64,000 nucleotides of DNA, from positions 2,016,001 through 2,080,000 of the forward strand of contig CBDBBI010000010.1 in the NCBI GenBank assembly GCA_965202625.1. Reading direction: 5' to 3'. The notes beneath the pieces were generated by a model. The model saw only the letters and a program-made list of their open reading frames with translations, was not told the DNA's origin and searched no databases. Position 1 is the stretch's first letter. The number at the start of each line of letters is the position of its first letter. Positions 2,045 to 21,285 of this stretch are shown here, piece after piece. Source of the DNA: a bacterium (lineage in GTDB: Bacteria; UBA8248). A program made the translations under genes and the position numbers.

Positions 2045-2046
2045 AC

Positions 2047-2973: not shown

Positions 2974-3529
2974 ATGCGGACCTTCTTTATCGGGGCTGGT
3001 GCGGAGGTCTGCGGATGGCGAAAAATTACAAGAAAAGCGTTCGCGCATTCTTGGGATAAGCTACAGAGGACACATTCATCATTGGAGCCGCATCAAAGAT
3101 GAAGTTCCACGTCAAGGCCGGCGTTGTCATCGTGATGGGACAGATGGATGAAAAATAGAGGTGAAGGAAAAACGTGAAGTGCGGGACCGCTCTCGACTGA
3201 AAGGTGAAATTCTTTTACACCAAGCATATACATGGAGGAGAGGGATGTGTGCGAGGGAATCTGTCGTATGACGAACGAACGAGGAGAGATGGAGAGAACC
3301 CTCGACAGGGCGGCCCGGAACTACTATAAGAGCGAATCGAGCCCCTCCGAGGAGGGTTGAACGTGACGCCCGTCCCGAGAACGCAGAATGCCAAACCTAC
3401 GTTCTGGAAACCTCGTCGCTGAAATGAAAAGCGTGATATACTGCGTCCAAGCTTGAGGTGGAGACCTTCGCTGCGGGGCCGCTGGTTCGCCACAGAGGCT
3501 CGGGACGATGGGAAAGAGGTGGGTTGGCG

Positions 3530-3799
3530 ATGGAGGAAGGTCGCTCGGTTCTGGGCGTCTTTGTCGGGTTTTTTTTCTGGTTTGGAGTTGCGTATTATTT
3601 TTATCATCGAGATTTTATAGGAGCTTTTTGGTTCGCTGTGGCCAGTGGCCTTTTGTATGGCGTCTATCTTTGGTTTCGCCATCTTTGGGCGGCGCGCCCA
3701 AGGCCTCTGCATATGCAGGATGAAGATGTTGATTTACCGTCCCGATCAGATTTGCCGAATTACGATTTTGAGAACGCTAAACCGAAAGACTTTGAATGA
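3530..3799 (+). CDS. Small two-helix membrane protein, hypothetical
   Basis: Two hydrophobic segments and an acidic tail; start inferred inside the 3458..3799 ORF. Confidence 0.6.
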   Translation: MEEGRSVLGVFVGFFFWFGVAYYFYHRDFIGAFWFAVASGLLYGVYLWFRHLWAARPRPLHMQDEDVDLPSRSDLPNYDFENAKPKDFE

Positions 3800-3864
3800 C
3801 GCGAATTTGATTTTCATTTCTTCTCACGACTTTCTCGGCTGGTTGCGGCGCGATTGGGGCTGAC

Positions 3865-4275
3865 GTGTCTCAGTTCGTGATATATGCCCACAGCGGCGAA
3901 TACGATCGCCTCTACCAAGTAGCGACCATGGCGGTGAGCGCCGCCGCGAATGGAGACGAGGCGCACGTGATTTTATTTTTTCATGCGTTAAAACGATTCG
4001 TGGACGATGACCTAGAAGGCGTCTTCGCGCCTTCCTCTCCTGAAGGGAGCGCCACTCCCGGAAAAGAGGGCGTTCGGGGCGCCAAACCCTCCTCTATCAG
4101 TGAGCTGATAGATTCCGCCAGGCAGCTTGGCAAGCTAAGGTTGTATGCTTGCGCCGCGCAGCCGAGGTTGATGGGCCTCGCGTCCGAGGACTTAGCGGAT
4201 ATTGTGGATGAAATCATTAGTCTGCCCGATTTTATGAGGAAAACAGAGGGGGCAAAGACAAAACTCTTCATTTGA
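3865..4275 (+). CDS. DsrE/DsrF-like (sulfur relay) family protein
   Basis: Size and pattern: AAA.GDE..VILFF.AL, then LYAC, IVDEII, F.......LFI C-terminus. Confidence 0.7.
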   Translation: MSQFVIYAHSGEYDRLYQVATMAVSAAANGDEAHVILFFHALKRFVDDDLEGVFAPSSPEGSATPGKEGVRGAKPSSISELIDSARQLGKLRLYACAAQPRLMGLASEDLADIVDEIISLPDFMRKTEGAKTKLFI

Positions 4276-4376
4276 GCGCGTTCGTCTCGGCTTTCTCGCG
4301 GTGATTTTGCGATCGTGTTGAACGCGCGGAGAGGACGGCTTTGCTTTTGTCCCTGAATCATTTTCGAGAAAAGCGC

Positions 4377-5237
4377 ATGAAATTTCTGGCGGCGGCGGCG
4401 CAAATTGGACCGACATTGGGGAACCTCGACGCGAATCGCGAATTGCTCGTCAAGGAGGTGAAAAAAGCGGAGGAGAGGGGCGTCGATCTCCTCGTTTTTC
4501 CCGAGCTTTCGTTGACGGGTTATTTTCTGAAGGACATGGTTCCTGATGTGGCCGTGAGGCAAGGAGACGAGTGCCTGCAAGAAATCGCCGCTCTCAGTCG
4601 GCGTGTCTCCCTTGTGGTTGGTTTTGTGGAGGAGTCCGCCCAATACGGGTTTTTTAATTCCGCAGCCTATTTCGAGAACGGGGAGATGCTGCACGTTCAT
4701 CGCAAGGTGTATTTGCCAACCTATGGACTGTTCGACGAGAATCGCTACATGGGCGCAGGAGACAAGATTCGCGCTTTTGACACCCGATTCGGCCGGTCGG
4801 CCGTCCTCATTTGCGAGGACGCTTGGCACCCGAGCCTGGCCGGAATCGCGTCGCTTGATGGCGCGGATTTACTTATTGTTCCCTCCGCCAGTCCTGCGCG
4901 CGGCGTCAGAAAGGGAAACGGCGAGGGAGGCCTCGCGATTCAGCGCGTTTGGCGCGCCCTGACGAGAACCTATGCCGCGGCCTACAATCAGCACGTCATT
5001 TTCAGCAACAGGGTGGGATACGAGGATGGAATCCATTTTTGGGGTGGCTCGGAAATTCTCTCACCCAGCGGCGAGCCGATCTCTCGGGCACGGCGCGCTC
5101 GAGAGCAATTTTTGGTCGCCTCTATTGACACGGCGAACGTGCGGCGCGCGAGAATCTCATCCCCCACGACAAGAGACGAGGACATGCATCTCACCCTCCG
5201 CGAACTCCGCCGCATCCAGAAGTCGCGGGAGAGGTAG
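4377..5237 (+). CDS. Nitrilase-family carbon-nitrogen hydrolase, likely stand-alone glutaminase subunit of NAD+ synthetase
   Basis: Glu-Lys-Cys triad motifs FPELSLTGY, HRKVYLPTYGLFDE, LICEDAWH; SASP; close to nadE. Confidence 0.8.
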   Translation: MKFLAAAAQIGPTLGNLDANRELLVKEVKKAEERGVDLLVFPELSLTGYFLKDMVPDVAVRQGDECLQEIAALSRRVSLVVGFVEESAQYGFFNSAAYFENGEMLHVHRKVYLPTYGLFDENRYMGAGDKIRAFDTRFGRSAVLICEDAWHPSLAGIASLDGADLLIVPSASPARGVRKGNGEGGLAIQRVWRALTRTYAAAYNQHVIFSNRVGYEDGIHFWGGSEILSPSGEPISRARRAREQFLVASIDTANVRRARISSPTTRDEDMHLTLRELRRIQKSRER

Positions 5238-5386
5238 GTTCTCGTATCGCGCCCCGGTTCTTGAATTGTACCCGGAATTCCTTTTTGCAGTTTCCGCGTC
5301 CCGAACCGTCTTAGGCGATTCTGCCCACGCTTCTGGAGTCTCGCTGACAACACGGGAGTGAGGCGGCCATGGGGATGGCCGTCGCT

Positions 5387-6166
5387 CTATTCGTCTCGCC
5401 ATTCGGTTTTTGAGGGCAGTGCGCCGCCCCTGAAGTTGAACAATAGCACTGAAGCGTCGCTCGCGTTTTCCACCGTATGCCAAGCGCCGCCGGGCGTGTG
5501 CACCAGATCGCCCGAGGACGCTTCGATGGTTTCGCCCTCCATGATGAAGTTCATGCTCCCTTTCAATACGAGAGTCGCCTCGTCCATCGTTTTCTGATGC
5601 CGATGAACGTGCGGTCTCGCGCCCGGAGGAAAGAAGACCACCTGGCACTCCAGGTATTCTGTGGAGAAGGCGCGCTTGAGACTATTTTCCTTCACTGTTT
5701 TCGGGTCGAAAGTCGTCGTTAGGTCGTCGAGGTCGCCCTTGATGTGCATCACGGGAGGCGCAAGAGGGTTTTTTACAGATTCCGGATCGGGATTCGGGGG
5801 TGGATCGCCTTCAGGCAGGAAGAAGCCCGATGGCATGACGCCGCCCCTGAAATTGAATTCTATCAATTCATCCTCGTCGATGTTTTTCATGTGGTGCATC
5901 GCGCCGCGCGGATTGAGGAGAAGGTTTCCCCTCTCGACGCTGAACGTCGCGCCGTTGCTGTGAATCAACCCGTTTCCACTGTAGATGAGGTAGCCCTCGT
6001 CCATCTCTTCATGGTGTGCATGATAAGGAGGATAAACGCCCGCGCCGAGGGCGATCACCCGCACTTCGAGATTGGGCGTGTCAACGCAGAGGGGAGATCC
6101 CTTTGTCCGCGCTTCTTCTTCATCGTAAACCCATTTTAGATTTTCGATGTTTCCTACGTAAGGCAT
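5387..6166 (-). CDS. Bicupin (two cupin-2 domains) protein
   Basis: Two internally repeated domains with H-x-H...DE and G..H motifs (YHAHHEEMDE/HVHRHQKTMDE; NFRGG twice). Confidence 0.8.
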   Translation of the reverse strand: MPYVGNIENLKWVYDEEEARTKGSPLCVDTPNLEVRVIALGAGVYPPYHAHHEEMDEGYLIYSGNGLIHSNGATFSVERGNLLLNPRGAMHHMKNIDEDELIEFNFRGGVMPSGFFLPEGDPPPNPDPESVKNPLAPPVMHIKGDLDDLTTTFDPKTVKENSLKRAFSTEYLECQVVFFPPGARPHVHRHQKTMDEATLVLKGSMNFIMEGETIEASSGDLVHTPGGAWHTVENASDASVLLFNFRGGALPSKTEWRDE

Positions 6167-6312
6167 GTGAACTCCGTATTATAGGCCTATGGGGCAAGAT
6201 ATACTTGGCGTCCCATAGGGTCAAACGCCTCAATCCATTGCGGAGAGAGTCCTCAAGGGGCATGATAGAAGGCGAATCGCCAGAGAAACATCTCTCATAA
6301 TGGAGATTCCGC

Positions 6313-7164
6313 ATGTTGGATGAGGGGCTTATTCGCCACGCGATGGCGGAACTCGCACTGGACAGCAAGCTCGCCGTCGGCCTGCTCTCCGGGTTCATTC
6401 GGGATGAGGTCTCCAAGGTGGGCGTGAAAAAGTTGGTTCTCGGCCTCTCGGGCGGAATCGACAGCGCGCTTTCCGCTTTTTTGGCGGCGGACGCCATGGG
6501 CCCCAATAACGTAACGGGCTTGATAATGCCCTATCGGCTCTCCAGCCCCCAAAGCGAAGAAGATGCGCGTGCGGTGGCCAAGGCCAGCGGCGTCCAGTTG
6601 AGAGTGGTGGACATTTCGCCGCAGGTGGACTCGTATTTTGGGCGGTTCCCCGATGCCGACAATCTTCGTCGAGGAAACAAGATGGCTCGGGAAAGGATGA
6701 CCATTTTGTATGATCACTCGGCCATGCTCAACGCTTTGGTGGTGGGCACGAGCAACAAAACCGAGCTTTTGCTCGGATATGGGACCTTGTTTGGAGACAT
6801 GGCCAGTGCCGTAAATCCCATCGGGGACTTGTTCAAGACGCAGGTGCGTCAGCTCTCCCGTTATGTTGGTGTGCCGGCGCAAGTGGTGGAGAAGGCCCCG
6901 AGCGCGGACCTTTGGGCAGGGCAAACCGACGAGCAGGAGCTCGGTTATGGCTACGAGGTAGCCGACGCCGTTTTGTATCATATGATAGACTGCCGCTATA
7001 AGCGCGAGGAGCTTTTGGGCGAAGGTTTTGCACCTGGGCTCGTAGATGGCATTCAAAAACTCGTGCAACGCAGCCAATACAAAAGACGCTTGCCGCTGAT
7101 CGCGAAACTCAGCCACCGAACGATCGACAGGGATTTCCGCTACGCCAGAGACTGGGGATTATAG
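6313..7164 (+). CDS. nadE: NAD+ synthetase (synthetase domain only)
   Basis: [12 protein letters not shown]-loop, [39 protein letters not shown]. Confidence 0.95.
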
Positions 7165-7286
7165 TCCCGCCCGCCCCCCTTGATGCGAACCCGGAACTAT
7201 GGCAATATGGAACTTTACATCCTTGCTCCATCTTCGATTTCGTTGGGCGCGCGTGATTTTTTGATTCTCAGGGGGGGGGCAAAATC

Positions 7287-7739
7287 GTGTTGAAAGAAGG
7301 ATCGAAAGCCCCTGCCTTCGCCCTGCGCGATGAAAACGGCAAGGTTCACCGACTCTCGAAATACAAGGGACAGAAGATCGTTCTCTATTTCTATCCGAAA
7401 GACAACACGCCTGGATGCACGACGGAGGCGCGGGATTTTAATAAAAACCTGGGGAAGATACAGAAGAAAAATGCCATTGTCATCGGCATCAGCCCGGACA
7501 ATGAGGTCAGCCACAAGAAATTCTCAAAGAAGCTGGAGTTAGACTTCACTTTGCTGGCGGACCCGGATGGTCTTATCTCGTCAAAGTATGAGGCGTATGG
7601 CGAGAAAACGCTGTTTGGCAGAAAGTTTAACGGAATTTTCCGCACAACCTATATTATTGATGAAAAGGGCGTCATCGAAAAAGTTTTCGAGAACGTCAAG
7701 GTGGATGGGCATACGAAAGACGTGCTGAAGGCGTTGTAG
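7287..7739 (+). CDS. bcp: Peroxiredoxin, BCP/PrxQ subfamily (single Cys)
   Basis: YFYPKDNTPGCTTEA motif; the usual second Cys is replaced by Arg. Confidence 0.92.
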   Translation: MLKEGSKAPAFALRDENGKVHRLSKYKGQKIVLYFYPKDNTPGCTTEARDFNKNLGKIQKKNAIVIGISPDNEVSHKKFSKKLELDFTLLADPDGLISSKYEAYGEKTLFGRKFNGIFRTTYIIDEKGVIEKVFENVKVDGHTKDVLKAL

Positions 7740-7889
7740 GCGTTCGGTCGCGTCCTTTCTCTGTTTTTCAGAATCTCCAATCAAAGAACGTGAGCGGCGA
7801 TTTGTCCGGAAAGACAACCTGGGCTTGAAGCGGCGGCCCGCCGCCTAGATTCCATTCAAGGGAAGCGAGAGACGGGAGGTAGCGCTAAA

Positions 7890-9551: not shown

Positions 9552-10583
9552 GTGAGCGAGCCTTCCGTGGATGCGTTTGAATACTTCTTTGACAAGCCTT
9601 GGTCAGACGGCCTGCCAGTCATTCCCCCAACGGAGGAGCGCTTGGCGCTTATGCTGGCGGGTGCGCGCCGCGCTCCGGGCGACGTCATAGGCGACGTCCC
9701 TCCGTTGTTGGGGCAGGCGCGCGTCGAGACGATCGCGGTTCACGCCGTCATGGCGGGATGCAAACCAGAGTATATGCCTGTCCTCATCGCGGCGATGGAG
9801 GCCATTCTTGAGGAGAAATTCAACATGGGCGGCGTGCAGGCGACGCTCTCTTGCGCGGCCCCCCTTTTGATCGTGAATGGCCCCTACGCCAAACAAATCG
9901 GACTGAGCGGCGGACTTGGCTGTTTCGGCCCCGGCAATCGCGCAAATGCGACAATCGGTCGCGCCATCAGGCTTTTGCTTCTCAACACGGGTGGCGGAAT
10001 ACCGGGCATCACTTCCATGAGCACGTTCTCTCAGCCGGCGAGATTCACTTTCTGCATAGCGGAGAACGAGGAGGAAAGCCCTTGGGCGTCTTTTGCGGAG
10101 ACGAGAGGCTTTGACGCGAATGACAACGTTGTCACAGTGGTGAACGTAGAGGGCCCCTGCATGGTCTGGGACGACGTGAGCGACGACCCGGAACGAATGT
10201 TTCCCTCCATTGCGGACGCCATGTCGCATTTGGGAGCGTGGAATTGTTGGGCCAGCACGGATTTGGTGGTGGCGATGAGCCCGCAGCAAGCGGCGATTTG
10301 CGCCAAGAATGGATACTCAAAGGCCGACGTTCATAGGCGTCTTTGCGAAATTGCGGGCCGCACCGTGGGCACGCTCAAGACGGGAGGGCATTTCAGGGAA
10401 AACCGCATTCGGAGCTTCCCGATCCCCGTTGATCTGGATGATGAGGATGCGTTCGTGCCGACGATCAAGGAGGCCGAAAGACTGTTCTTGATCGTGGCGG
10501 GCGGAGTTCCGGGGCCGATGACGGCCGTGATGCACGGTTGGAACGGAAACAGCCGTTCCGTATCCCGGGCGTTTGCGTCCTGA
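9552..10583 (+). CDS. Uncharacterised UGSC-associated ~340-aa protein, paralogue 1
   Basis: PWSDGLPVIPPT, VHAVMAGCKPEY, LIVNGPY, GNRANATIGRAIRL, AENEEESPW motifs shared with the next three genes. Confidence 0.85.
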   Translation: MSEPSVDAFEYFFDKPWSDGLPVIPPTEERLALMLAGARRAPGDVIGDVPPLLGQARVETIAVHAVMAGCKPEYMPVLIAAMEAILEEKFNMGGVQATLSCAAPLLIVNGPYAKQIGLSGGLGCFGPGNRANATIGRAIRLLLLNTGGGIPGITSMSTFSQPARFTFCIAENEEESPWASFAETRGFDANDNVVTVVNVEGPCMVWDDVSDDPERMFPSIADAMSHLGAWNCWASTDLVVAMSPQQAAICAKNGYSKADVHRRLCEIAGRTVGTLKTGGHFRENRIRSFPIPVDLDDEDAFVPTIKEAERLFLIVAGGVPGPMTAVMHGWNGNSRSVSRAFAS

Positions 10584-10611
10584 CGTTGTCCACATATTTT
10601 CTGAGGGAGCG

Positions 10612-11646
10612 ATGGCTTTGAACGGCCCTCAGGACGAATTCGAGTTTTTCCTGGAAAAGCCGTGGTCGGATGGATTGCCCGTCGTCACCCCATCGCAAGA
10701 GCGCGTAGAGCGGATGCTCTCGGGGACGAAGAGGAATCCTGCCGAGGCGATAGGCCGCGTTCCTCCCGCCATGGGCGAGGCCACGGTCCACAGCGTGGCG
10801 GTTCATGCGGTGATGGCCGGTTGTAAGCCGGAGTATTTGCCGGTCGTTCTCGGCGCAGTTTCCCTCATGCTTCGTGATGCGTTCAACGTGAACGGCGTGC
10901 AAGGCACGATGCACGGCGTAGCGCCCCTTATGATCGTCAATGGCCCCTATTCGCAGAAGATCGGCATTCACGGAGGCAATGGTTGCTTTGGCCCCGGTTT
11001 TCGGGCGAACGCCTCCATCGGCCGCGCCATTCGCCTGATCTTGATGAACCTGGGCGGGGGCATACCGGGCGTCTCTTCGATGACGATTTTCGGCACCCCG
11101 CTGCGTTATACCGCGTGCGTCACGGAGAACGTAAAGTTTCACCCCTGGAAGACGCTCGCGGCATCCAGGGGATACGGGGCGGATGAAAACGTGATCACCA
11201 TGGCCATGGTGGAAAGCCCGCGCCTGACCTTTGATGACGTCAGCGAGGAGCCCGAGCGTCTGCTCAGGGGCATCGCGGATGCGATGACGGGCCTGGGCTC
11301 CTGGAACATGCACGCGCCCAGGACGGATATGGTCGTCGCCATGAATCCCCAGCACGCGAAAATTTGCTCTGATGGCGGGCTTTCGCGCGCGGACGCGCAT
11401 CGGCGTCTATGCGCGCTGGCGGGCCGCAAGGTGAAGGAGCTCAAGCGCGGCGGCAACTGGCGACGCGCGCGCGCCCTGGATATGAAAATTGACGTGGACC
11501 CCGACGATGATGAGTGTTTCGTCCCCGTCATCAAAGACCCGAGCGACCTCCATCTTATCGTCGCCGGCGGCTGGGGTTCGGGCAGCGCGGTTTGCCATGG
11601 GTGGAGCGGCGGCAGTCGCGCCGTTCATGGGGCGTATGCGGTTTGA
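10612..11646 (+). CDS. Uncharacterised UGSC-associated protein, paralogue 2
   Basis: Same motif set; GAGGGAG RBS before ATG 10612. Confidence 0.85.
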   Translation: MALNGPQDEFEFFLEKPWSDGLPVVTPSQERVERMLSGTKRNPAEAIGRVPPAMGEATVHSVAVHAVMAGCKPEYLPVVLGAVSLMLRDAFNVNGVQGTMHGVAPLMIVNGPYSQKIGIHGGNGCFGPGFRANASIGRAIRLILMNLGGGIPGVSSMTIFGTPLRYTACVTENVKFHPWKTLAASRGYGADENVITMAMVESPRLTFDDVSEEPERLLRGIADAMTGLGSWNMHAPRTDMVVAMNPQHAKICSDGGLSRADAHRRLCALAGRKVKELKRGGNWRRARALDMKIDVDPDDDECFVPVIKDPSDLHLIVAGGWGSGSAVCHGWSGGSRAVHGAYAV

Positions 11647-11687
11647 CGCCTGGCGCGCCATGCGCGACGAAACGAAGTCGTATCTCC

Positions 11688-12704
11688 ATGGATGAGTTCG
11701 AGTTTTTCTTTCAAAAACCCTGGTCGGATGGCCTTCCGGTGGTTCCGCCTACCCGAGAACGCATGGCCGCCATGCTCTCGGGCGCGAGGTTGCGCGAGGC
11801 CGAGGTCATCGGTCTGGTGCCGCCCCTCATGGGGGAGGCGACCGTCGGGGCGGTTGCCGCACACGCGGTGATGGCGGGGTGCGCGCCCTCGTTTTTACCC
11901 CTCGTCATCGCAGGTCTCGAAGCCCTTCTCGCACCGAACCTCAACCTGAACGGCGTCCAGGGAACGATGCACGGTGCGGCACCCTTGCTTATCGTGAACG
12001 GACCGTATGCGCGGAAAATCGGTCTGCATGGCGGCACGGGATGCTTTGGCCCGGGCTTTCGTGCGAACGCGGCCATCGGCCGCTCCCTCCGCCTCATTCT
12101 CATGAACCTGGGCGGCGGCGTGCCGGCTTCCGCCTCCATGAGCACGTTCGGCTCGCCCGCCAGATATACGTTTTGCGTCGCCGAGAACGAGGCGGAAAGC
12201 CCCTGGGCACCGCTTTCCGTCACGAGAGGATTTCGTCGTGACGACGACGTCGTGACGGCCGTGATGGTGGAGGCACCCCAAGGTTACATCGACGATTATT
12301 CAAAAGAGCCGGAATCTTTTTTCGTGGGCCTGGCGGATAAAATATCCACGTTGGGCGCGCTCAACGTTTGGCTGAAGACCCAGGTCGTCGTCGCCCTGGG
12401 GCCGGATCATGCGCGGATGTGCGCGCGCGCGGGACTTGGCAAAGAAGACGTTCGCCGCAGAATGATGGCACTTGCGCGCAGACCTCTGGGGGAGCTCAAA
12501 AAATCGGGTTACTGGCGTGAGGAGATGGTGGCCAAATGGCCGTTTGACGCAGATCCGCAAGACGATTCGTTCATGGTTCCGGCTATCAAGGATGAAGACG
12601 ACCTCATCCTTGTCGTGGCGGGCGGAACTCCCGGCCCCGTGACGGCCGTCATGCCCGGCTGGGTGGACGGCAGCACGGCGGTCTCCATGGGTTATCGCGC
12701 ATGA
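11688..12704 (+). CDS. Uncharacterised UGSC-associated protein, paralogue 3
   Basis: Same motif set; start MDEFEFFF chosen by alignment to the paralogues. Confidence 0.85.
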   Translation: MDEFEFFFQKPWSDGLPVVPPTRERMAAMLSGARLREAEVIGLVPPLMGEATVGAVAAHAVMAGCAPSFLPLVIAGLEALLAPNLNLNGVQGTMHGAAPLLIVNGPYARKIGLHGGTGCFGPGFRANAAIGRSLRLILMNLGGGVPASASMSTFGSPARYTFCVAENEAESPWAPLSVTRGFRRDDDVVTAVMVEAPQGYIDDYSKEPESFFVGLADKISTLGALNVWLKTQVVVALGPDHARMCARAGLGKEDVRRRMMALARRPLGELKKSGYWREEMVAKWPFDADPQDDSFMVPAIKDEDDLILVVAGGTPGPVTAVMPGWVDGSTAVSMGYRA

Positions 12705-12741
12705 ATCGGGGACGTTTCAGACGGGGGATACTTTTGGAGGC

Positions 12742-13767
12742 GTGCGCATGGATGGGTTCGAGTTTTTCTTTGAGAAGGAATGGTCGGACGGATTGCCCGT
12801 GGTGCCGCCGACCGAAGAGAGAGTCGCTTGGATGCTCTCTGGAACCACGCGGGCACCAGACGAGGTCATAGGCTACGTCGCTCCGGCGGGGGGTGCGCTC
12901 AGCGTCCACGGCGCGGCGGTCCACGCCGTGATGGCGGGGTGCAAGCCTGCGTATATGCCGGTGTTGACGGCGGGTCTGGAGGCGCTTCTTGATGCGCGTT
13001 TCAACGTCAATCTCATTCAGGCCACGACGAGTGCTGGTGCTCCTTTCATGTTGGTGAACGGCCCCTACGCCAAGGAAATCGGGCTGCACGGCGGAGTGGG
13101 CTGCATGGGTCCCGGCTTTCGCGCGAATCTCACCATCGGCCGCGCCGTGAGGCTCATCATGATGAACGTAGGCGGCGGCATCCCTGGCATCACCTGTCTC
13201 GGTGGTTTCGGAGGTCCCTGGCGCACCACTTTTTGCATCATGGAGAACGAGGAGGAGTCGCCTTGGGAGTCGTATGCGGAATCAAAGGGGTTTTCGGGGG
13301 ACGACAACGTGGTGAGCATGATTCCCCTTGAGGGGCCGGCGCAGGTATGGGACGACGCGAGCCTGACTCCCCAGCGATTGCTCACGACCGTGGCCGACAT
13401 GATGTCCGCTTTGGGCGGACCCAACATGTATCGGCAAGCGGATATGGCGGTTGTCCTGGGCGCGCAACATGCGCATCTTTGCGCCGACGCCGGCCTCGGC
13501 CGCGCCGACGTTCACCAAAAATTGCTGGAGATGGGCGGTCGCACCGTTCGGGATATCAAACGCGGCGGCATCTGGCGCGACGAGAAGGGCGCGAATCGTT
13601 GGCCGTTTCCCGTGGACGTGAACGATGACGATTTTTTCGTGCCCGCCGTTGGCGATCCCGACGATCTGCATTTGATCGTCGCCGGAAGCAGGGGTTCGCC
13701 CTCCAGCATGGTGATGCACGGAATTACAGTGGCGTGCCGGGCGGTGACAAAGAAATTTGACGTGTGA
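12742..13767 (+). CDS. Uncharacterised UGSC-associated protein, paralogue 4
   Basis: Same motif set; GGAGG RBS just upstream. Confidence 0.85.
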   Translation: MRMDGFEFFFEKEWSDGLPVVPPTEERVAWMLSGTTRAPDEVIGYVAPAGGALSVHGAAVHAVMAGCKPAYMPVLTAGLEALLDARFNVNLIQATTSAGAPFMLVNGPYAKEIGLHGGVGCMGPGFRANLTIGRAVRLIMMNVGGGIPGITCLGGFGGPWRTTFCIMENEEESPWESYAESKGFSGDDNVVSMIPLEGPAQVWDDASLTPQRLLTTVADMMSALGGPNMYRQADMAVVLGAQHAHLCADAGLGRADVHQKLLEMGGRTVRDIKRGGIWRDEKGANRWPFPVDVNDDDFFVPAVGDPDDLHLIVAGSRGSPSSMVMHGITVACRAVTKKFDV

Positions 13768-13790
13768 GCACCCGCCTTCCGGCAGGCAAT

Positions 13791-13821
13791 GAGGCGTGAA
13801 GCCTCCGGATTTCCACGCCTC
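13791..13821. terminator. Hairpin after the paralogue array (possible terminator)
   Basis: GAGGCGTG...CACGCCTC inverted repeat; no clear U-tract. Confidence 0.35.
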
Positions 13822-14099
13822 TACTTCCCCTTCAAAACTGACAACCTCACAACCTTGACGGTCATAGGTCCAAAGCCTGTTCCCGCAACCACGCCAAACC
13901 ACTGAAAAATCTGGTATTTTTGATTTTTGGCGACATCTATTAGAAATCACCGGGATTCAGAAAAACCACCGGAACAAACATTCAATGTTGTAATTTTAGG
14001 GATCGCGTAGAGAGGTACCTGGCAATGTGTTCGTACTGAACTTCCACGATTTCCATCCGCGAACGATTACGTGATTTTAACAATTAGCGCTAACAGGCC

Positions 14100-15341
14100 C
14101 TATTCCTCGTCTGAGGGTTGCCACTCGATATCCGAATCCTCTTCAAGGGCGTAGGAAAAATCTTTCACCTCCGTTTCCGGCTGGTAGTCCGGGTACAGTC
14201 GGTGCAAGTCCCACTCGTTGATCGCGGTGCGGATCTTGTGGCGCATTCGACGATGAATGCCGGCACCCGCGACGACCTGTGGTGCCGGTGGCCGCGCACC
14301 GTAAGCCTGCTCATAGATGCCGCGCAACTTTTCCAGCACCGCAACGAGCTCGTCATCACCCGGTTGCTCCAGGATGACGCATTCGCGTTCCAGTAGCTGC
14401 ATACCAATTTCGGCCTGTTCGACAATGCCTTTGTATCGGCTCTGCCCTAGCCTCAATCCTATCTTGTCCTTGTCACGCTTATGTCCGTCGGGGTTGATGA
14501 CATGGAAGGCGAAATCGTCCGTCACCGCACCGACCACGACCAAGCCAGGTAAGGCCTCGTCCGCGACGCGTCCCATCCAGCGCGCAAGCTCTGCATAGGC
14601 GCGACCCCGTTGCAAGATCGAATAAGAAGCGACCAGTTCAATCTCGTCGAGAAGAACGACCCAACCTCGATAACCAGCGGCCTTGATAAGCTCGACGACA
14701 AAGCGCAGCCGCTTCGGGGGCAACTCCGCCGCCCTTGGTGCGGAAAATGGATAGTATTCGGCTTTGTGGATTTCCTTCAAACCTCTGCGGAGATTCGCTA
14801 CTGCCATACGATCGCCGGACCAGAAGGCTTCGATTTCCTCTTCAAGACTGAAATCATCGTTGTCTTGATGCACGATGAGGCTCGCTGGGAATATTGGATG
14901 CAGGTCTCCGCGCGACGCGGCATCGTGGACCCATTGGATGAACACTTCATACCGCTCCGAGGATGGATTCAACCGCAAGCTCAACTCTTCCATCAACCGC
15001 CCGTCGTGTCCGGGCAACCTGCCGCTCTCCATAGCGGCGGCAAACACCTTCTCTAGGTTGTAAAGTGGCGTCTCCTTGCTGATCGCCACCCTACTGCACA
15101 CGAAGTCTTCGGCCAACGCCCGCTGTTCCAGATGCGACAAAAGGTGCGATTTGCCGGTTCCAAAGCCGCCTGAAACCAGCATCGCCCGCGAATTCCCAGT
15201 ATCCCCTGGGACCTCCGCCAACATATGTGCAAAACGTTCTTCCACCTCCGGCTGATTACAGCCCAATTCGCGCACCGCATCTCGGTTGGGTACGCCGTTG
15301 CGCAACGCCTCCACCGCCTGCCGGGCAGCGACCTCTGGCAT
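14100..15341 (-). CDS. DUF2791/BrxD-type P-loop ATPase
   Basis: N-terminal EALRNGVP, Walker A GGFGTGKSHLL, Walker B WVVLLDEIE, typical of BrxD-like ATPases. Confidence 0.8.
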   Translation of the reverse strand: MPEVAARQAVEALRNGVPNRDAVRELGCNQPEVEERFAHMLAEVPGDTGNSRAMLVSGGFGTGKSHLLSHLEQRALAEDFVCSRVAISKETPLYNLEKVFAAAMESGRLPGHDGRLMEELSLRLNPSSERYEVFIQWVHDAASRGDLHPIFPASLIVHQDNDDFSLEEEIEAFWSGDRMAVANLRRGLKEIHKAEYYPFSAPRAAELPPKRLRFVVELIKAAGYRGWVVLLDEIELVASYSILQRGRAYAELARWMGRVADEALPGLVVVGAVTDDFAFHVINPDGHKRDKDKIGLRLGQSRYKGIVEQAEIGMQLLERECVILEQPGDDELVAVLEKLRGIYEQAYGARPPAPQVVAGAGIHRRMRHKIRTAINEWDLHRLYPDYQPETEVKDFSYALEEDSDIEWQPSDEE

Positions 15342-15353
15342 AGCATCTTCTCC

Positions 15354-16310
15354 TTAGCTCAACCGCACTAAAGCCGAGACTGGATTGACAATATTCCGGT
15401 CTCGCACATCGTCCATTATTCTCACCTTCAATGCTTCGTATATCCCCCAATCCCTTCCCGATTCCTGCTCAAAGAACTGATAGTTGGTCCTCACTATGAG
15501 CAATGTTCCTGTTAGTAGATCTGTGTCGTCGATGATCTCTCGTAACAGTTGATAGTGATCCATAGTCATCGCCCTGTTGTAATAGTGCTGTCCGTCCTTC
15601 GGGTTGCGGGCGACTGTCAATCGCGCATTGTCGAGCATGACCACCGTGCCCGACCATCCCGCCTGCTGCACCCAATAAAAGATCGACCTGAGGAAGTATC
15701 GCGCCGTGGCACGGTTGATTGTTGTGCAAATCTGAAACGTTCTGACTCTGCCAATTCTTGGGTCGGTACCATTGAGCCAATCTATGACTGGCTGGCGTGT
15801 TGTCCTTCCCGCTGCTGAACTATCAGCCTGCTCCAGGCAAATTTGGGTCATAGCTATCCGAAACGCTTTCACCATGTTTTTGTTCTTCGTGACTTCCTTT
15901 TCAATTTTTTGCCTCAATCCAAGAAGGACCGATCTATGTTCCAAGCCGTTAAGTTGTGCTACGGCATCAATAACGTTTTCTACTGTTCCCGGATCAATGT
16001 CTTTGATTTGATAATTCAATGACTCCAGAGAGCGCAACATAAATTGGCGGGCAAGGAGCCGCCAATCGATCTGTGCTGCAATGCCGAAGAAGATTTTCTG
16101 TGGCATGTGGACGCGATGTTCCTCAGCGTCCAGATTCAGGAAAATATAGCCTTCCTTCTCGCAACACGACCTCAAGGTTTCCAACAATTCCCATTTCCGG
16201 TCATCATCAATAACCGAGAATTTTACTGCCGCGCCACCATCCTTGACGAAGGTAGATAGATATTCTTGCTTAAGAATGTCCATCCATTCCGCAATGGCAA
16301 TGTTCGTCAC
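15354..16310 (-). CDS. DUF2791-like protein with degenerate P-loop
   Basis: GGAAVKF strand followed by no GxxxxGK; WSGTVVMLDN in place of LLDE; YQLLREIIDD and IYEALKVRI segments resemble the BrxD-like C-terminal region. Confidence 0.65.
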   Translation of the reverse strand: MTNIAIAEWMDILKQEYLSTFVKDGGAAVKFSVIDDDRKWELLETLRSCCEKEGYIFLNLDAEEHRVHMPQKIFFGIAAQIDWRLLARQFMLRSLESLNYQIKDIDPGTVENVIDAVAQLNGLEHRSVLLGLRQKIEKEVTKNKNMVKAFRIAMTQICLEQADSSAAGRTTRQPVIDWLNGTDPRIGRVRTFQICTTINRATARYFLRSIFYWVQQAGWSGTVVMLDNARLTVARNPKDGQHYYNRAMTMDHYQLLREIIDDTDLLTGTLLIVRTNYQFFEQESGRDWGIYEALKVRIMDDVRDRNIVNPVSALVRLS

Positions 16311-17119
16311 GAAGGATTCTTCCTAAAACTAATCCCGCAATATTTTACATTATTTCCACTTGGGTCGGTAAAAAACAGTAAGTTTTTTGATGGCTGCCTA
16401 GTTCCGGTGGACGACGGAAAGGAGACGGCAGCCCCATCTCTGGTCTCTCGGGGGCCGTCGCGGTCGAGTAAATACACATCCCGAGCGAAGTCCTGTTGTG
16501 TATAGTCCACCGCACTGCCTGGTAGAGCGGTTATGAGCTTGTATATCCTGATTAACAGAATGATCCGCCCGGCATTCAGTGGACCATTCGGCGCATTAGA
16601 GGTGATGTCTTTGTAGACTCTGTAAAGCGTCTCGATAAACTGCTTCGGCTTGAAGCCACTCTGTCTGTTCTGATTGTGAATGAGAAAATTAACAAGATGG
16701 GATGGCCTTATATCCGAAACTTTTTTTCTGTCGACCTGCACAGCCCGATCCTTCGGGACGATCTTGACGACAGAGGGATAGGAAACTAGGATTCGATCCT
16801 GTTTATGAATGTTCAAACGTTTCTTTTGGGCCACTTGTAGAAGCTCGTTTATATACCTGTCCCTGAGAAACTGAACCTCTTCTTCTTGCGAAAATGGCCA
16901 GAAGGAGGTGATGGAAAAGTCTTCCCGTTGCAGCGCGGCCAAAGCCTCCCCGATCTTTTCCTGCTCGCGCCTAATGGTTGCAATCCGGCCCGTGTGAGCA
17001 GCTTTCTTGAGTGCCCTTGCCCTCGCCGCCAATTCCTTCGCGGCTTGCAACGCTGCCTCGGCGGCACGTTCTGTGTCAGCGCAGGCTTTTTCGAAACTTG
17101 TCATCTCAACTGATCCCAA
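16307..17119 (-). CDS. Hypothetical protein with N-terminal coiled coil, first gene of the DUF2791 module
   Basis: GGAGG RBS; Ala/Lys/Arg heptad-rich N-terminus; GTGA overlap with the next gene. Confidence 0.75.
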   Translation of the reverse strand: MGSVEMTSFEKACADTERAAEAALQAAKELAARARALKKAAHTGRIATIRREQEKIGEALAALQREDFSITSFWPFSQEEEVQFLRDRYINELLQVAQKKRLNIHKQDRILVSYPSVVKIVPKDRAVQVDRKKVSDIRPSHLVNFLIHNQNRQSGFKPKQFIETLYRVYKDITSNAPNGPLNAGRIILLIRIYKLITALPGSAVDYTQQDFARDVYLLDRDGPRETRDGAAVSFPSSTGTRQPSKNLLFFTDPSGNNVKYCGISFRKNPS

Positions 17120-17429
17120 CTGATCCCTCCAAGGACTCTCCAGGAAGAGTCATGCTAAACATCCATCCGGTCGTTCGTCAAGTTTGGCGCGGGTCAGGGA
17201 CAGAGTTATTGCATTTGGCCTATGATCGACCTTGTGAGGGCATCGGAGTTTCCGATGTGTAGATGCTTTCGATGAACGGAGATACCGGGGAGATCGACGT
17301 AACCTTATGGTGCCACTCCCGGACGTTTTGTCCCCCATGATTTGCCCATCGCATGTTGTTCCTTTCACGGAAGTTAAGGGATGGAATTGCTTACATGCCA
17401 TCGCCGTTTCGGGGTGGTTCCGGATGAGG

Positions 17430-17460
17430 AAGCCCCGGCAAGATGCCGGGGCTTTGCTTT
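17430..17460. terminator. Intrinsic terminator hairpin downstream of the molybdoenzyme gene
   Basis: AAGCCCCGGCA-AGA-TGCCGGGGCTT perfect stem just past the stop at 17470. Confidence 0.75.
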
Positions 17461-17469
17461 TCCTGGACG

Positions 17470-19731
17470 TCAACCGCCCCCGTTCTCGCCGTTTTTCTGC
17501 ATCACCGCCCGGCAGACGCGCTCGGGGGTGATGGGCAGGTCGTGGAGCTCCGCGCCTATCGCGTCGTTGACGGCGAGGGCGACGGCGGCCGGTGCGTTGT
17601 TGCACGGCGGCTCTCCAACGCCGCGCGCGCCGTATGGACCCGCCCCCTCGCCGCATTCGAGGACGAGGGACGCAAACTCGCCGACGTCCGATGAGGTGGG
17701 TATCAGGTACTCGTGAAAACTCTGGGAGCGGCAATCTCCCTCCACCATGGTGATTTCCTCGTGCAGCGCGTAGCCGATTCCCATCACCGCGCCTCCTTCG
17801 AATTGCCCTTCCACGCTCGTGGGGTTGAGCGCGCGCCCCACGTCATGGGCGGCGACGTGCTTCAGAAGGTTCACCTCGCCGGTCTCTACGTCCACTTCCA
17901 CCTCGCTCGCGTGAACGCCGAAGGTGTAATCCGACCAGCCGCCCATGCCGTTCATGTAGCGTTGCGGATTCTCATAGTCGTGCCCCGGCATGTTGTAGCC
18001 GTGCGTGCAGTGGAGCGACTCGCCCATTCCCTTGGCTTCGCCCGCCGCGGCTCCAATCCCCACCCTTCTCTGGGGAGCGGAGGAGACCCAGGCCTCGCCG
18101 CCCCCGAAGCGAACGTCCTCCTCCGCGGCTTCGAGCAATGATGCCGCGCCTTTGGCCAACGCCTTGCGAACTTCCTCTGCGGCGAGTTGAACGGCGTGTC
18201 CCGCCATCAACGTTTGGCGCGAGCCTGCGGTGATGCCCGATAGCGGGGTGGTGGCGGAATCGGACAAGCGGGTGGAGACCTGATCGAGCCTGAGCCCCAA
18301 GGTTTCGGCCGTGATGCTTTGAAGCGTAGCCCCCTGGCCCGCGCCTATGTCCGGAGCGCTCACGCGGACCACGGCGCTGCCGTCCGGCTCCAGGTGAACC
18401 GCCGCGTTCGCGTCGTCGTGCGGTCTTCCGTAGCCGGTGATGTTCGCCGCCGCCGCCCGGCCGATGCGCTTTCCCGGGCCCGGCTTCGCGGGCGTGCCCA
18501 AAGCCTGAAGCGCGCTGTCCAGGCACCCCTCCAGGTTGGGCTTGTAAGGAATTTTCTGGCCGGTGGGCAGCTTTTGCCCTTTCTGAATGAAATTTTTTCG
18601 CCTGAACGCGTATTTGTCCATGCCGATGGCGTCCGCGATCAGGTTTATCTGGTTCTCGTAGGCGAAGCAGACCTGGTTCGACCCGACGCCCCGCATGGCG
18701 TTGGTGATGGGGTTGTTCGTGAGATAGCCGTGCGCGCGAATTTGCGCGTTGGGAACGTCGTAAGGGCCTGCGGCGATGCACATGGCGCCCAGGAGGAACA
18801 AGTTGGACTTGTATGGATAGGCGCCCGCGTCGCCCACGATGTCCGCCTGTAAGGCGAGAATTTTTCCGTCCTTGGTCGCTCCCGTCTTGTATCTCATATA
18901 GAAGGGGTGTTTCTTTGAAGTGTTTCGGATGCCTTTCTCGCGGTTCAGCACCATCACGGCGGGCCTTCCCGTATGCCAGGTGAGCAGCGCCAGGTAGGGT
19001 TCCACCGTCAACATTCCCTTGGCGCCGAACCCGCCGCCGACGTAAGTGCCGAGGTGGCGGACGCGGCTCTGGGATATCCCCAGAATCGCCGCGATGGCGC
19101 GATAGTATTCAATGAGCTGCGTGCCGACGCGGATGGTGAGGACGCCGTCCTCCTCCATCCAGGAGGCGCCGGAGGCGGGCTCCAGAAAGGCATGTTCCGC
19201 AAGCTGCGTCGTGTATGTTTTCTCGATGACCACGTCGGCTTCGGCGAACGCGGCTTCCACGTCCCCCCGGGCGACTTCAAAATCACACGCCTGCCGCTTC
19301 TCCGCGCTCGCCTCGTCGTGGCGCGTCGTCCACACGCCTTCTTCCGCGTCAATTTCCACCTCAATGGCCGCGATGGCGGCGTCGAGCGCGTCTCTCGTTT
19401 CGGCGCCCACGATCGCCAGGGCGTCTCCGGTATATTCGATCTTCTCTTCGACCAAAACGGGTTGATGGGGAAGACCCGGCGTGCCCGAGCCGAACCGCAC
19501 GTTTTTGCCGGGAATGTCCTTCGCGGTCAGAACGGCGACGACGCCTGGAATTTTCTCGGCCCTCGAAGCGTCAAGTTTTTTTAGGCGGCCCACCGGAGTG
19601 GGTGTGAACAACACGCCGCATTGCAAGGCGCCAGGGGGTATCGCGTCTTCTCCATAAGGCATGGAGCCGTCCGCTTTTGGTATGGAATCGTATCGAACGT
19701 TCGACTTGCCGATGATGTCGTAATCGGCCAT
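17470..19731 (-). CDS. Xanthine dehydrogenase-family molybdopterin-binding (large) subunit
   Basis: True start MADYDIIGKS with AAGGAG RBS; EHAFLEP, GGGFGAKG, AMRGVG, DIGAGQG, TAGSRQT, VEGQFEGG, GARGVGEPP. Confidence 0.92.
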   Translation of the reverse strand: MADYDIIGKSNVRYDSIPKADGSMPYGEDAIPPGALQCGVLFTPTPVGRLKKLDASRAEKIPGVVAVLTAKDIPGKNVRFGSGTPGLPHQPVLVEEKIEYTGDALAIVGAETRDALDAAIAAIEVEIDAEEGVWTTRHDEASAEKRQACDFEVARGDVEAAFAEADVVIEKTYTTQLAEHAFLEPASGASWMEEDGVLTIRVGTQLIEYYRAIAAILGISQSRVRHLGTYVGGGFGAKGMLTVEPYLALLTWHTGRPAVMVLNREKGIRNTSKKHPFYMRYKTGATKDGKILALQADIVGDAGAYPYKSNLFLLGAMCIAAGPYDVPNAQIRAHGYLTNNPITNAMRGVGSNQVCFAYENQINLIADAIGMDKYAFRRKNFIQKGQKLPTGQKIPYKPNLEGCLDSALQALGTPAKPGPGKRIGRAAAANITGYGRPHDDANAAVHLEPDGSAVVRVSAPDIGAGQGATLQSITAETLGLRLDQVSTRLSDSATTPLSGITAGSRQTLMAGHAVQLAAEEVRKALAKGAASLLEAAEEDVRFGGGEAWVSSAPQRRVGIGAAAGEAKGMGESLHCTHGYNMPGHDYENPQRYMNGMGGWSDYTFGVHASEVEVDVETGEVNLLKHVAAHDVGRALNPTSVEGQFEGGAVMGIGYALHEEITMVEGDCRSQSFHEYLIPTSSDVGEFASLVLECGEGAGPYGARGVGEPPCNNAPAAVALAVNDAIGAELHDLPITPERVCRAVMQKNGENGGG

Positions 19732-19932
19732 TTGTTTGCTCCTTACGATGTAAGAGGGTTTTTGAAAATCAATCTTCATTCTGCCAAACTTCGACGCAAC
19801 TGAGAAGGGGAAATACGCTTGCGCCCGCGTTTTCCAGGGGACAATCCAGCGGGCGACATTCTGGACAAGGGATGCTTTGCGAGATATGATGTGGATAGGG
19901 CTCAATTCACATACCCTACATTGGAGGGCGCC

Positions 19933-20463
19933 ATGGCGAACGAAATGGGATTCATCGACCCGACTGCGGGGGGGACGGCCGAGAAAATAGAACTTGCGCA
20001 ACGGCCCGTCGATCTTTCTGGCAAGGTGGTGGGACTTCTCGACAACACGAAAGAGCAGGCGGACATTATTCTCGAAACTCTGGGAAACGCTCTCCGAGAA
20101 CAATATGACGTGGCGAAGGTCGTCTCGCAGCGCAAGGAGCATTACTCGAAGCCCGCCACGGATGAGATGATTGCGGAAATGGCCCAGGAGGTGGACGTGG
20201 CGATAGCCGCGCTGGGGGGCTGAGGCTCGTGTACGTTGTGCAGTGTGCACGACACGGTGGAATTTGAGAAACGAGGCGTTCCTTCGACCACCATCATCAC
20301 CGAGGCGTTCAAGAACGCAGCGGACTTTCAGTTTCGGGGCAAGGGCATGGAAGGGCACCCATACGTGCAGTTGCCCCACCCGGTCAGCAATTTGCGACCC
20401 GAGGAGATGCGGGAGACGACGCTGAGGTTCGTCGAGGAAGTGGCCAGCCACCTGAAAACCTGA
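19933..20463 (+). CDS. UGSC-family selenoprotein (thioredoxin-like; in-frame TGA 20221-20223 read as Sec97)
   Basis: ORF-track pieces 19819..20223 and 20236..20463 are in the same frame and join as ALGG-U-GSCTLCSVHD; GGAGG RBS; hairpin 11 nt after the TGA. Confidence 0.88.
20228..20256 (+). promoter_or_regulatory. Bacterial SECIS-like hairpin of the UGSC gene
   Basis: GTTGTGCA-GTG-TGCACGAC stem-loop (20235-20253) with a G-containing apical loop, starting 11 nt after the UGA. Confidence 0.7.
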
Positions 20464-20496
20464 TGGGGGCTGAGGAGAAAAGGCGTCTTCCAGGAG

Positions 20497-21285
20497 GTGC
20501 CCGTGCGCGGGTTCGAGACGATATCCTATGAAGAAGAGGACGGATTGGCGGTAGTGAAGCTCAACCGCCCGGAGAGTTTGAACGCGATCAGTTTCAAGAT
20601 GGCGGAAGAATTCGTGGAGCTGGCGCGGGCCTTGGTTGATTCGAGAGACGTGCGCGTTGTGGTTCTCTCTGGCGAGGGACGCGCTTTCAGCACGGGTCGA
20701 GACCTCAAGGAAAGCGCTACGCACACCAAGGAGATGGCCGACCAATATCAGCGTCATGTGATGGCGACGACGACGCTGTGGGAGTGCTTGCCCATGCCTA
20801 CCATCGCCGCCATCAACGGCCATGCGTTTGGTTGGGGTGTGGAAATTACTCTGGGGTGCGACGTCAGGCTCGCCGCGCAAGAAGCCACTCTTTGCCTGCC
20901 GGAGTGCAGCTTGGGAATTTTTCCGGGGGCGGGCGGCGTGGTCAGGCTGCAAAGAATCATGCCGGCTGGACAGGCGAAAGAGCTCGTGTTCACGAGCAAA
21001 CGAATTGACGGGAAGGAGGCCGAGCGCATCGGCCTGGTGAACAAGGCGCATCCCCTGAATGCGCTCATGGGCGAAGCGAGGGGTATGGCGGAGAGGATAA
21101 GGGACAATGGCCCTCTGGGGGTTCGCGGCGCGAAAAAGGTGATCGACCAGACGCTCGACATGCCGCTCGCCCAGGCGGTGGAGTTTTCCAACGCTCTGAG
21201 GCTGCCGCTCAACCACACCAAGGATTTTGCCGAGGCACTGGCCGCTTTCAGGGAGAAGAGGAAACCTGTTTTCACAGGAGAATAG
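20497..21285 (+). CDS. Enoyl-CoA hydratase/isomerase family protein
   Basis: LNRPESLNA, AFSTGRDL, AAINGHAFGWGVE, LPECSLGIFPGAGG; both catalytic Glu positions present. Confidence 0.92.
   Translation: MPVRGFETISYEEEDGLAVVKLNRPESLNAISFKMAEEFVELARALVDSRDVRVVVLSGEGRAFSTGRDLKESATHTKEMADQYQRHVMATTTLWECLPMPTIAAINGHAFGWGVEITLGCDVRLAAQEATLCLPECSLGIFPGAGGVVRLQRIMPAGQAKELVFTSKRIDGKEAERIGLVNKAHPLNALMGEARGMAERIRDNGPLGVRGAKKVIDQTLDMPLAQAVEFSNALRLPLNHTKDFAEALAAFREKRKPVFTGE

Follow-up and report, generated by a model that had tools for sequence, protein, structure and literature searches.

A BrxD-like ATPase gene triad in a bacterial defence hotspot: a putative reduced form of an ATPase–helicase operon family

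The stretch of DNA analysed here (64,000 nucleotides from a bacterium of the UBA8248 lineage; assembly GCA_965202625.1, contig CBDBBI010000010.1, positions 2,016,001–2,080,000 of the forward strand), referred to below as the window, contains a module of three minus-strand open reading frames (ORFs) spanning positions 14100–17119. These are g1 (16307–17119; 270 amino acids, a member of an unnamed family), g2 (15354–16310; 318 amino acids, a degenerate BrxD-like protein) and g3 (14100–15341; 413 amino acids, a BrxD-like P-loop ATPase). The stop codon of g1 overlaps the start codon of g2 in the tetranucleotide GTGA, and a spacer of 12 nt containing GGAG separates g2 from g3. An earlier note, made from the sequence of the window alone, had pointed out this tight coupling and an AT-rich composition relative to the flanks; both are confirmed, with a GC content of 0.47–0.59 over the module compared with 0.60–0.66 in both flanks. 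The module is contained in a low-GC insert of 3.65 kb (13777–17429, no strand), delimited by comparison with empty sites in genomes of the same genus: homology to these sites ends on the left at 13760–13776 and resumes on the right at 17430–17489. The insert lies between two convergent core genes, an unnamed 341-amino-acid gene on the left (12742–13767) and the gene of a molybdopterin dehydrogenase subunit, ending at 17470, on the right.

The left edge of the insert carries a solitary repeat (13818–13842, minus strand) of the clustered regularly interspaced short palindromic repeat (CRISPR) type, which is identical at 23 of 25 nt to the repeat of a Cas12c array on a short contig of the same assembly (C6; see below). 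The start that the earlier note assigned to the module, 13822, falls within this repeat. The next 257 nt, downstream of g3 (13843–14099, minus strand), are non-coding; in relatives of the module this place is occupied by a helicase gene. The upstream non-coding region of the operon (17120–17428, minus strand) contains GGAGG before the start and one sigma-70-like match (17181–17152), and promoter-like matches upstream of g1 are not above chance (four found, compared with 2.9 +/- 2.0 in shuffled sequences). Beyond it lies an ancestral GC-rich hairpin with a 12-pair stem and a T-run (17429–17455, plus strand), which matches the empty-site loci L104 and L106. Of the three empty sites tested, two have kept the hairpin just past the left flank gene, and it is most likely the former terminator of that gene, now separated from it by the insert. 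The gene and the hairpin are parted by 3.65 kb in the window (13768–17455), and read-through from the left flank gene would cross g3–g1 in the antisense direction.

The ATPase assignment is clearest for g3, which matches the Pfam family BrxC_BrxD (PF10923) with an E value of 8.7e-23 (81.3 bits, gathering cut-off 22.2) and the PADLOC model of BrxD with an E value of 3.9e-18. Its Walker A (GGFGTGKS, containing GTGKS) and Walker B (VVLLDEIE, containing LLDE) motifs are both intact, as the earlier note had read them, and residues G61, G63, K64, S65, D232 and E233 are invariant in 29 sequences. The g2 protein matches PF10923 over residues 123–317 only, i.e. its C-terminal two thirds (E = 3.1e-10, 40 bits), and the PADLOC models of BrxD (E = 3.1e-9) and SngB (E = 0.0021). 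A canonical Walker A motif is absent from g2, and in the sequence VVMLDN the Walker B LDE is replaced by LDN, with LLDN being the consensus of the g2 family. The description of g2 as degenerate stands; its supposed lack of the P-loop lysine is not strictly established, as G25, G26 and K30 are invariant in the family. Neither protein approaches the cut-off of 350 bits of the equivalog-level NCBIfam model BREX_BrxD (NF033438), on which g3 scores 65.4 bits and g2 34 bits. A direct alignment of g2 and g3 with hhalign covered only 44 columns around Walker B with a probability of 10.5%, and their putative paralogy rests on the common Pfam family, without support from direct similarity. A sequence search of the PDB with g3 alone gave nothing, and the g3 profile reached matches at the level of the P-loop only, the best being TnsC (E = 0.012) followed by BrxC–BrxB (E = 0.23). 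Neither g2 nor g3 has a match in PHROGs.

No family in Pfam, PADLOC, NCBIfam or PHROGs accounts for g1, the two rows at E ≤ 0.1 being below threshold and at chance level. Its translation probably starts at the ATG at 17104, giving 265 amino acids, because homologues begin with M-x-SFEQ and because a second allele of the insert, described below, lacks 10 nt between the TTG at 17119 and this ATG. In the window, positions 17104–17119 resemble an imperfect 10-nt tandem duplication that shifts GGAGG away from the ATG, and the start codon and ribosome-binding context therefore differ between the two alleles. Proteins of the g1 family are about 265 residues long. A word-indexed search found 149 clusters, none with a Pfam domain and with the few available names reading `hypothetical protein'; with a g1 profile and 1.84 billion representatives, the number of clusters (at 50% identity) was 877 at E ≤ 1e-3 and fell to 652 at 1e-10 and to 281 at 1e-30. 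The AlphaFold2 model (mean predicted local distance difference test score, pLDDT, of 88) shows a long helical hairpin (residues 9–73) followed by alpha/beta regions. When the C-terminal 195 residues were modelled alone (pLDDT 87) two subdomains were obtained. The first (residues ∼76–153) is an alpha/beta structure with weak frataxin-like matches, a reading on which we do not rely given a Z score of only 6.4. The second (residues ∼153–270) repeatedly matched winged-helix proteins (kleisins, ORC/Cdc6, ESCRT-II, forkhead proteins and linker histones) with Z scores of 4.9–6.1. All fold matches of the C-terminal region have Z scores of 6.5 or less, which is below the trustworthy level, and the second subdomain may be described as weakly winged-helix-like. 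A Foldseek search with g1, which the earlier note had proposed, gave no match at E ≤ 1e-3 for the whole protein, the helical hairpin dominating the fold searches, and none for the C-terminal model; a PDB sequence search with the g1 profile returned nothing and a protein atlas search returned unnamed clusters only. The earlier picture of a protein without a recognizable family, helical at its N-terminus and possibly winged-helix-like at its C-terminus, is thus retained.

Relatives of the module were collected in two sets. The near set comes from a scan of 185,579 species, each represented by one genome, and comprises the best 80 loci among 211 relatives; the distant set comprises the best 80 loci among 565 relatives from metagenomes. 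A metagenome scan with the query P0269 returned no relative. The order and strand of g1–g2–g3, a triad whose conservation the earlier note had proposed to look for, are kept in 79 of the 80 near loci as judged by tblastn, the remaining one (L048) ending 62 nt after g1, and the window proteins are 41–60% identical to those of the 79 same-order loci. The order is found in 68 of the 80 distant loci, and 11 of the other 12 are cut right after g1. This arrangement is not due to chance, and the window triad almost certainly belongs to the same family. One distant locus (L156, 6031–6687) has a g1 homologue followed by 6 kb of downstream sequence with no g2 or g3, and is unique in this among the 160 loci examined.

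Clustering of neighbouring ORFs in the near loci revealed one more conserved gene, g4, located directly downstream of g3, and no fifth gene common to more than nine of the 80 loci. g4 encodes a protein of about 690 residues that combines SNF2-related and Helicase_C domains (PF00176 and PF00271) with a conserved N-terminal domain (N-domain). It directly follows the triad in 71 of the 79 near triad loci, including one (L074) cut by a contig end. Among the distant loci with a complete g3, 23 have a helicase, ten have none in the 2.5 kb or more that are available downstream and 19 are too short to tell, so that the helicase is present in 23 of the 33 informative loci. In 20 of these 23 a separate gene of 185 residues intervenes between g3 and the helicase, and its product is related to the N-domain of the fused near-branch helicase (27% identity over 172 residues, E = 9e-12). 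In addition, 13 of the 23 distant-branch helicases carry a C-terminal Mrr_cat nuclease domain (PF04471, E = 3e-23). The full system would therefore consist of g1, a dead ATPase, a live ATPase, an N-domain and an SNF2 helicase, with or without a nuclease.

Several individual loci depart from this scheme in their details. A 295-residue HNH endonuclease gene (PF13391) is located directly upstream of g1, on the same strand and about 200–1100 nt away, in nine Caldilineaceae loci (L013, L015, L018, L019, L020, L023 and three more). In L008 the equivalent upstream gene encodes a fusion of HNH with an AspBHI-like methyl-directed endonuclease, and the helicase gene is followed by one for PDC-S68 (1503 bits). 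L023 has a second, partial helicase copy (17572–18555; residues 346–673, 69% identity) 2.5 kb downstream of the complete one. The g3 gene of L014 (11799–13036) matches as two overlapping pieces in different frames and has probably undergone a frameshift; no other locus deviates at as many conserved g3 columns (18). The helicase-less Vicinamibacterales loci L065, L066, L069 and L080 have a gap of 160–330 nt between g2 and g3, compared with the usual 15–60 nt.

The helicase arm is missing from the window and from the genome. The assembly consists of one contig of 2.92 Mb (C10), which includes the window, and nine short contigs (C1–C9). A tblastn search with the g4 query, including the N-domain, gave no match in the window, nor any in the 99.7%-complete genome, in which neither an SNF2 nor an N-domain match was found at E ≤ 1e-3; the separate N-domain gene used as a query likewise had no match in the genome. 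No helicase remnant is apparent downstream of g3: a profile of 63 g4 N-termini compared with the six frames of 13701–14160 gave a best E value of 0.71 with a negative score. An eight-residue `WLR' resemblance in the same region was dismissed, its score also being negative. Members of the family normally comprise four or five genes in an operon, the last of them encoding an SNF2 helicase, and the window therefore appears to contain a reduced form; with no helicase arm anywhere in the genome, its triad is most likely an effector-less remnant. The earlier note had regarded the module as self-contained, which does not agree with the architecture of the family. It had also reasoned that homologous triads lying always inside complete BREX (bacteriophage exclusion) or other named loci would make this one a fragment; the relatives lie in no BREX locus, but the underlying idea, that the module is part of a larger unit, is for the most part upheld. 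As a separate observation, an Mrr-like endonuclease domain is encoded about 800 kb from the triad (C10:2832455–2832778) with no evident link to it; it shares 36% identity with the nuclease end of a distant-branch helicase (E = 3e-11).

The family resembles several known systems without coinciding with any of them. A 2026 Nucleic Acids Research survey (PMC12839542) regards BrxD as an AAA+ ATPase of the ORC/Cdc6 type that stands alone but is closely associated with the helicase BrxHI, which it is proposed to load or activate. The BrxD–BrxHI dyad of BREX types 2 and 6 is similar to the present family in placing a stand-alone PF10923 ATPase beside a superfamily-2 helicase. The family helicase, however, is of the SNF2 type rather than Lhr/Ski2-like, a degenerate BrxD-like gene stands beside the intact one, and BREX has no g1. 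PglX, PglZ, BrxC and PglW are absent here, none of the 61 other ORFs of the window matching PADLOC at 1e-10, in agreement with the earlier note's finding of no BREX partners nearby. Shango, as outlined in the preprint 10.1101/2022.11.11.516204, comprises the TerB-like SngA, the ATPase SngB and the DEAD/DEAH helicase SngC and occurs in a core defence hotspot; it is likewise a small operon of accessory protein, ATPase and helicase. The SngB model is matched weakly over complementary parts (g3 residues 38–94, E = 1.8e-7, 28.6 bits; g2, 15.2 bits). In contrast to Shango, g1 has no TerB domain (Pfam), two ATPase-like genes are present instead of one, and the family helicase is an SNF2 protein with its own N-domain, the window having none; SngC is not among the 25 listed of the 43 PADLOC families for g4.

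Over its SNF2 core, g4 matches the PADLOC models of ZorD of type I Zorya (E = 3e-70), DpdE of Dpd (E = 6e-64) and DrmD of DISARM (E = 8e-44), and the distant branch has the same layout of SNF2 plus Mrr nuclease as PADLOC describes for ZorD. The partner genes of these three systems are absent, the window lacks such a helicase and the scores are far below the NCBIfam cut-offs (137 bits for ZorD, cut-off 1500). An analogy of function may be drawn with ORC/Cdc6-type loaders that contain dead subunits, in which an active and a degenerate subunit stand side by side near a helicase; the C-terminal model of g1 weakly resembles the winged helix of ORC/Cdc6 and of kleisins, and the profiles reach solved AAA+ proteins through the P-loop only. 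No named system in PADLOC or NCBIfam fits, in line with the earlier note, which had recognized none. A literature search found no description of the operon, bioRxiv supplements and subscription journals being outside its scope; a 2016 metagenome paper (PMC5099237) does mention PF10923 genes, which it reports from three sponge metagenomes but not from seawater.

The chromosomal slot that holds the triad was examined in 22 genomes of the same genus. Both flank genes are present in all 22 and g1 in none. The slot is empty in 19, with the flanks 70–206 bp apart, which supports the horizontal acquisition proposed in the earlier note. The three others contain an Eco57I-type N6-methylase and a partner of 220 residues on an insert of 2.4 kb (G006), an NgoFVII-type endonuclease with a C5-methylase and Vsr (G012) and an IS1380 transposase (G015). 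The same core-gene interval thus carries varied defence systems in some relatives and is empty in others, as expected of a defence hotspot. The same slot is found once more within the assembly of the window genome itself. Eight of the nine short contigs match parts of C10 at 79–99.8% identity with internal differences, and C4 matches only C5; the 4.7% `contamination' of the assembly may be due to the strain-variant haplotigs that it contains. Haplotig C6 (locus L107) has the same flanks as the window at 99.2–99.8% identity, and its slot contains 6.35 kb (1505–7855) that form a complete-looking type V-C locus encoding Cas12c (1272 residues; NCBIfam NF033950, 1082 bits) and Cas1 (341 residues) together with an array of 30 copies of a 25-nt repeat at a spacing of 43 nt, i.e. 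with 18-nt spacers. The defence context is therefore much stronger than the earlier note could see, with restriction–modification (R-M) systems or a Cas12c CRISPR locus occupying the same slot in relatives.

The triad and Cas12c alleles are connected through the solitary repeat. Exactly one copy of the repeat is present in the window and in C10, compared with 30 in C6, and the homology of C6 running from the left flank stops at 13840, i.e. at this copy; relative to C6, the allele-specific part of the window is 13841–17468. The 64 nt at 13777–13840 are common to the triad and C6 alleles and absent from the empty sites; the two alleles therefore have a common history. Replacement of the Cas12c locus by the triad cassette is the most economical reading, although this order of events would not amount to a single internal swap, since the triad allele keeps the ancestral hairpin (17429–17455) and C6 lacks it. 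Two samples of one study yielded contigs that extend from the right flank into the Cas12c allele; as the triad is present in these runs as well, the two alleles coexist. In run X1 the contig depth of the triad is 3.8, compared with 11.9–12.7 for the flanks, which suggests a minority allele, depths of this kind being no measure of cell shares; parts of the triad that lack coverage in runs X4, X5 and X6 were given no weight.

The neighbourhoods of related loci also point towards defence. In 15 related loci, 23 of 124 neighbouring ORFs match PADLOC at 1e-10, with the 61 other ORFs of the window (none matching) as a crude control from a single region. Some of these matches are to generic ATPases or polymerases; specific defence neighbours occur in seven of the 15 loci and comprise type I R-M, AbiE and AbiL, an OLD-like ATPase, PDC-S68, PDC-S01, a NERD helicase and a reverse transcriptase. 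We consider it likely that the family has a role in defence.

On a tree of the concatenated proteins the window copy falls within a clade of 22 helicase-bearing loci (support 97), and its terminal branch is by far the longest (0.73, median 0.16). Of the columns with a conservation of 90% or more, 30 differ in the window, more than in any other row (median 8). These departures include W349A and Y399L in g3 and the radical changes D72K, E208R and E254Q in g2 at columns that are 97–99% conserved. The second allele mentioned above was recovered from run X5 of another study, a library labelled sponge metagenome, and has the same left junction across the solitary repeat. It differs from the window at five of 1579 flank positions and at 44 of 1400 positions in five pieces of the insert. 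Of 25 changed codons, 20 are non-synonymous and five synonymous over 708 non-synonymous and 219 synonymous sites, a ratio of 1.24, which fits an omega of 1 (P = 0.44) and rejects values of 0.38 (P = 0.009) and 0.25 (P = 3e-4). Each allele departs from near-invariant residues that the other allele or the family keeps: g2 T245 is a threonine in 78 of 79 family members and an asparagine in the window, and g3 P126 and R319 are both changed in the second allele. The substitution pattern of the window lineage fits an absence of purifying selection.

We therefore favour, with a probability of roughly 55%, the interpretation that the window triad is the sensor/loader half of an unnamed candidate antiphage family of BrxD-like ATPases and helicases, left as an effector-less remnant that drifts without purifying selection. 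By analogy with BrxD–BrxHI, g1 would bind DNA through its winged-helix-like domain and dimerize or dock through its helical hairpin, tethering to the DNA a heteromer of g2 and g3. The latter may form an ATP-driven switch with a single catalytic site, as in initiator/loader ATPases. On foreign DNA, ATP binding or hydrolysis would cause this switch to load or activate the SNF2 translocase, which would displace the invader or, where a nuclease is present, cut it. The cassette landed in a defence hotspot where a portion of the population has a Cas12c CRISPR locus, and on balance the window copy appears not to be an autonomous working system.

A number of observations weigh against this interpretation. 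All three window ORFs are intact and still translationally coupled, and a metatranscriptome has three contigs identical to parts of g3 and g1, which is compatible with expression of the triad or with DNA carry-over. Triads without an adjacent helicase recur in eight of the 79 near and ten of the 33 informative distant loci, and at least five changes to the helicase-less state are required on the tree. In a helicase-less clade of five Vicinamibacterales genomes the pairwise ratio of non-synonymous to synonymous substitution rates (dN/dS) is 0.15–0.38 for all three genes, similar to helicase-bearing Binatia (0.11–0.35; Caldilineaceae, 0.03–0.14); selection can therefore preserve a triad that has no helicase next to it. 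The window is no clear outlier in its deviations, as four helicase-bearing loci reach 26–28. The second allele consists of single contigs with a depth of 3–5, of which only stretches at least 95% alike were compared; 11 of the 19 changed g3 codons fall within residues 116–146, a stretch that is variable across the family, and a ratio near 1 is also expected from diversifying selection on an immune sensor, which is not separable from drift in these data.

Much of this evidence is also what would be expected if the triad were an autonomous three-gene defence system in which g1 and g2/g3 sense and act without a helicase, e.g. by ATP-driven clamping or a replication block, and in which the fast change reflected diversifying selection on a sensor surface. 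The recurrence and, in one clade, purifying selection of helicase-less triads, the intact and coupled ORFs, the RNA-library contigs identical to segments of g1 and g3 and the clustering of non-synonymous changes in the family-variable stretch of g3 can all be accommodated by it. So can the results of a search for the helicase elsewhere in five helicase-less genomes, where two of the best matches are weak (E = 7e-4 and 3.5e-14), i.e. without a close g4 orthologue, and the other three are only 36–41% identical over the SNF2 core. It accounts less well for the facts that most of the family has a helicase, that the triad has no recognizable effector domain and that the window nests among helicase-bearing relatives. 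The radical changes in g2 at highly conserved columns also speak against it, and both alleles change near-invariant residues outside the variable patch (242 and 245 in g2; 93, 126 and 319 in g3). This is the alternative that survives best, and we regard it as unlikely. A more far-reaching version, in which the triad is the autonomous core of a widespread immune family that acts alone or with exchangeable effectors (SNF2, SNF2–Mrr or none), the near-neutral ratio stems from diversifying selection on a DNA-contacting insert of g3, and the cassette displaced Cas12c by recombination at the CRISPR repeat to leave two immune alleles segregating in one population, is rather doubtful.

The family as a whole could instead be a non-immune module for DNA maintenance, regulation or a mobile element, its loader-like pair of ATPases and its remodeller having the host chromosome as their substrate. 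In favour of this, many neighbours in related loci are metabolic, two of the 15 scanned loci have no PADLOC neighbour, several of the matches in the others are generic, and g4 has its best NCBIfam matches to an SCO1167-type helicase and to a `pilus expression-regulating Snf2 helicase', with scores that fall well short of the cut-off in each case. Its patchy spread (g1 in none of the 22 congeners), the use of the slot by R-M systems and CRISPR, the Mrr nuclease fused to the helicase in one branch and the specific defence neighbours of seven loci speak against such a role. The family is also essentially absent from plasmids and viruses: g1 and g3 have no match in a plasmid collection, and viral contigs gave one weak match of 77 residues only. 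We consider a non-immune function improbable. Least probable is that the triad works with an unlinked partner in the genome, such as another helicase or nuclease (the Mrr-like gene, for instance) or a neighbouring defence system: exchange of parts among defence modules is discussed in a preprint on modularity (10.1101/2025.09.30.679545), but the genome search gave neither an SNF2 nor an N-domain match at E ≤ 1e-3, nothing ties the distant Mrr gene to the triad, the 64-kb window has no other PADLOC match and a substitution ratio near 1 speaks against a maintained function.

The surroundings of the insert show some further features. The left flank gene is the last of four tandem paralogues of about 340 residues (9552–13767), each starting with ...FEFFxEKPWSDGLPVVPPT; this last copy, the only one scanned, belongs to no Pfam family. 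Many more copies are present in genomes of the same genus, with up to 13 DNA matches per genome. On the right, the listed ORF of 1248 residues (17470–21216) is over-extended, as the Pfam domains of the molybdopterin dehydrogenase subunit fit about 756 residues (17470–19740). The window contains no transfer RNA genes.

As the window copy is probably effector-less and drifting, it is a poor choice for cloning, and a four- or five-gene relative would be better suited. The window itself is a clean case of immune-cassette turnover, with R-M systems, a Cas12c CRISPR locus and the triad found at one slot. If the family is immune, it would constitute a fairly large uncharacterized lineage among the modules that pair a BrxD-type ATPase with a helicase, and its natural series of forms (the triad; the triad with SNF2; the triad with an N-domain gene and SNF2–Mrr) may serve for asking what role BrxD-like ATPases play in BREX type 2 and Shango.

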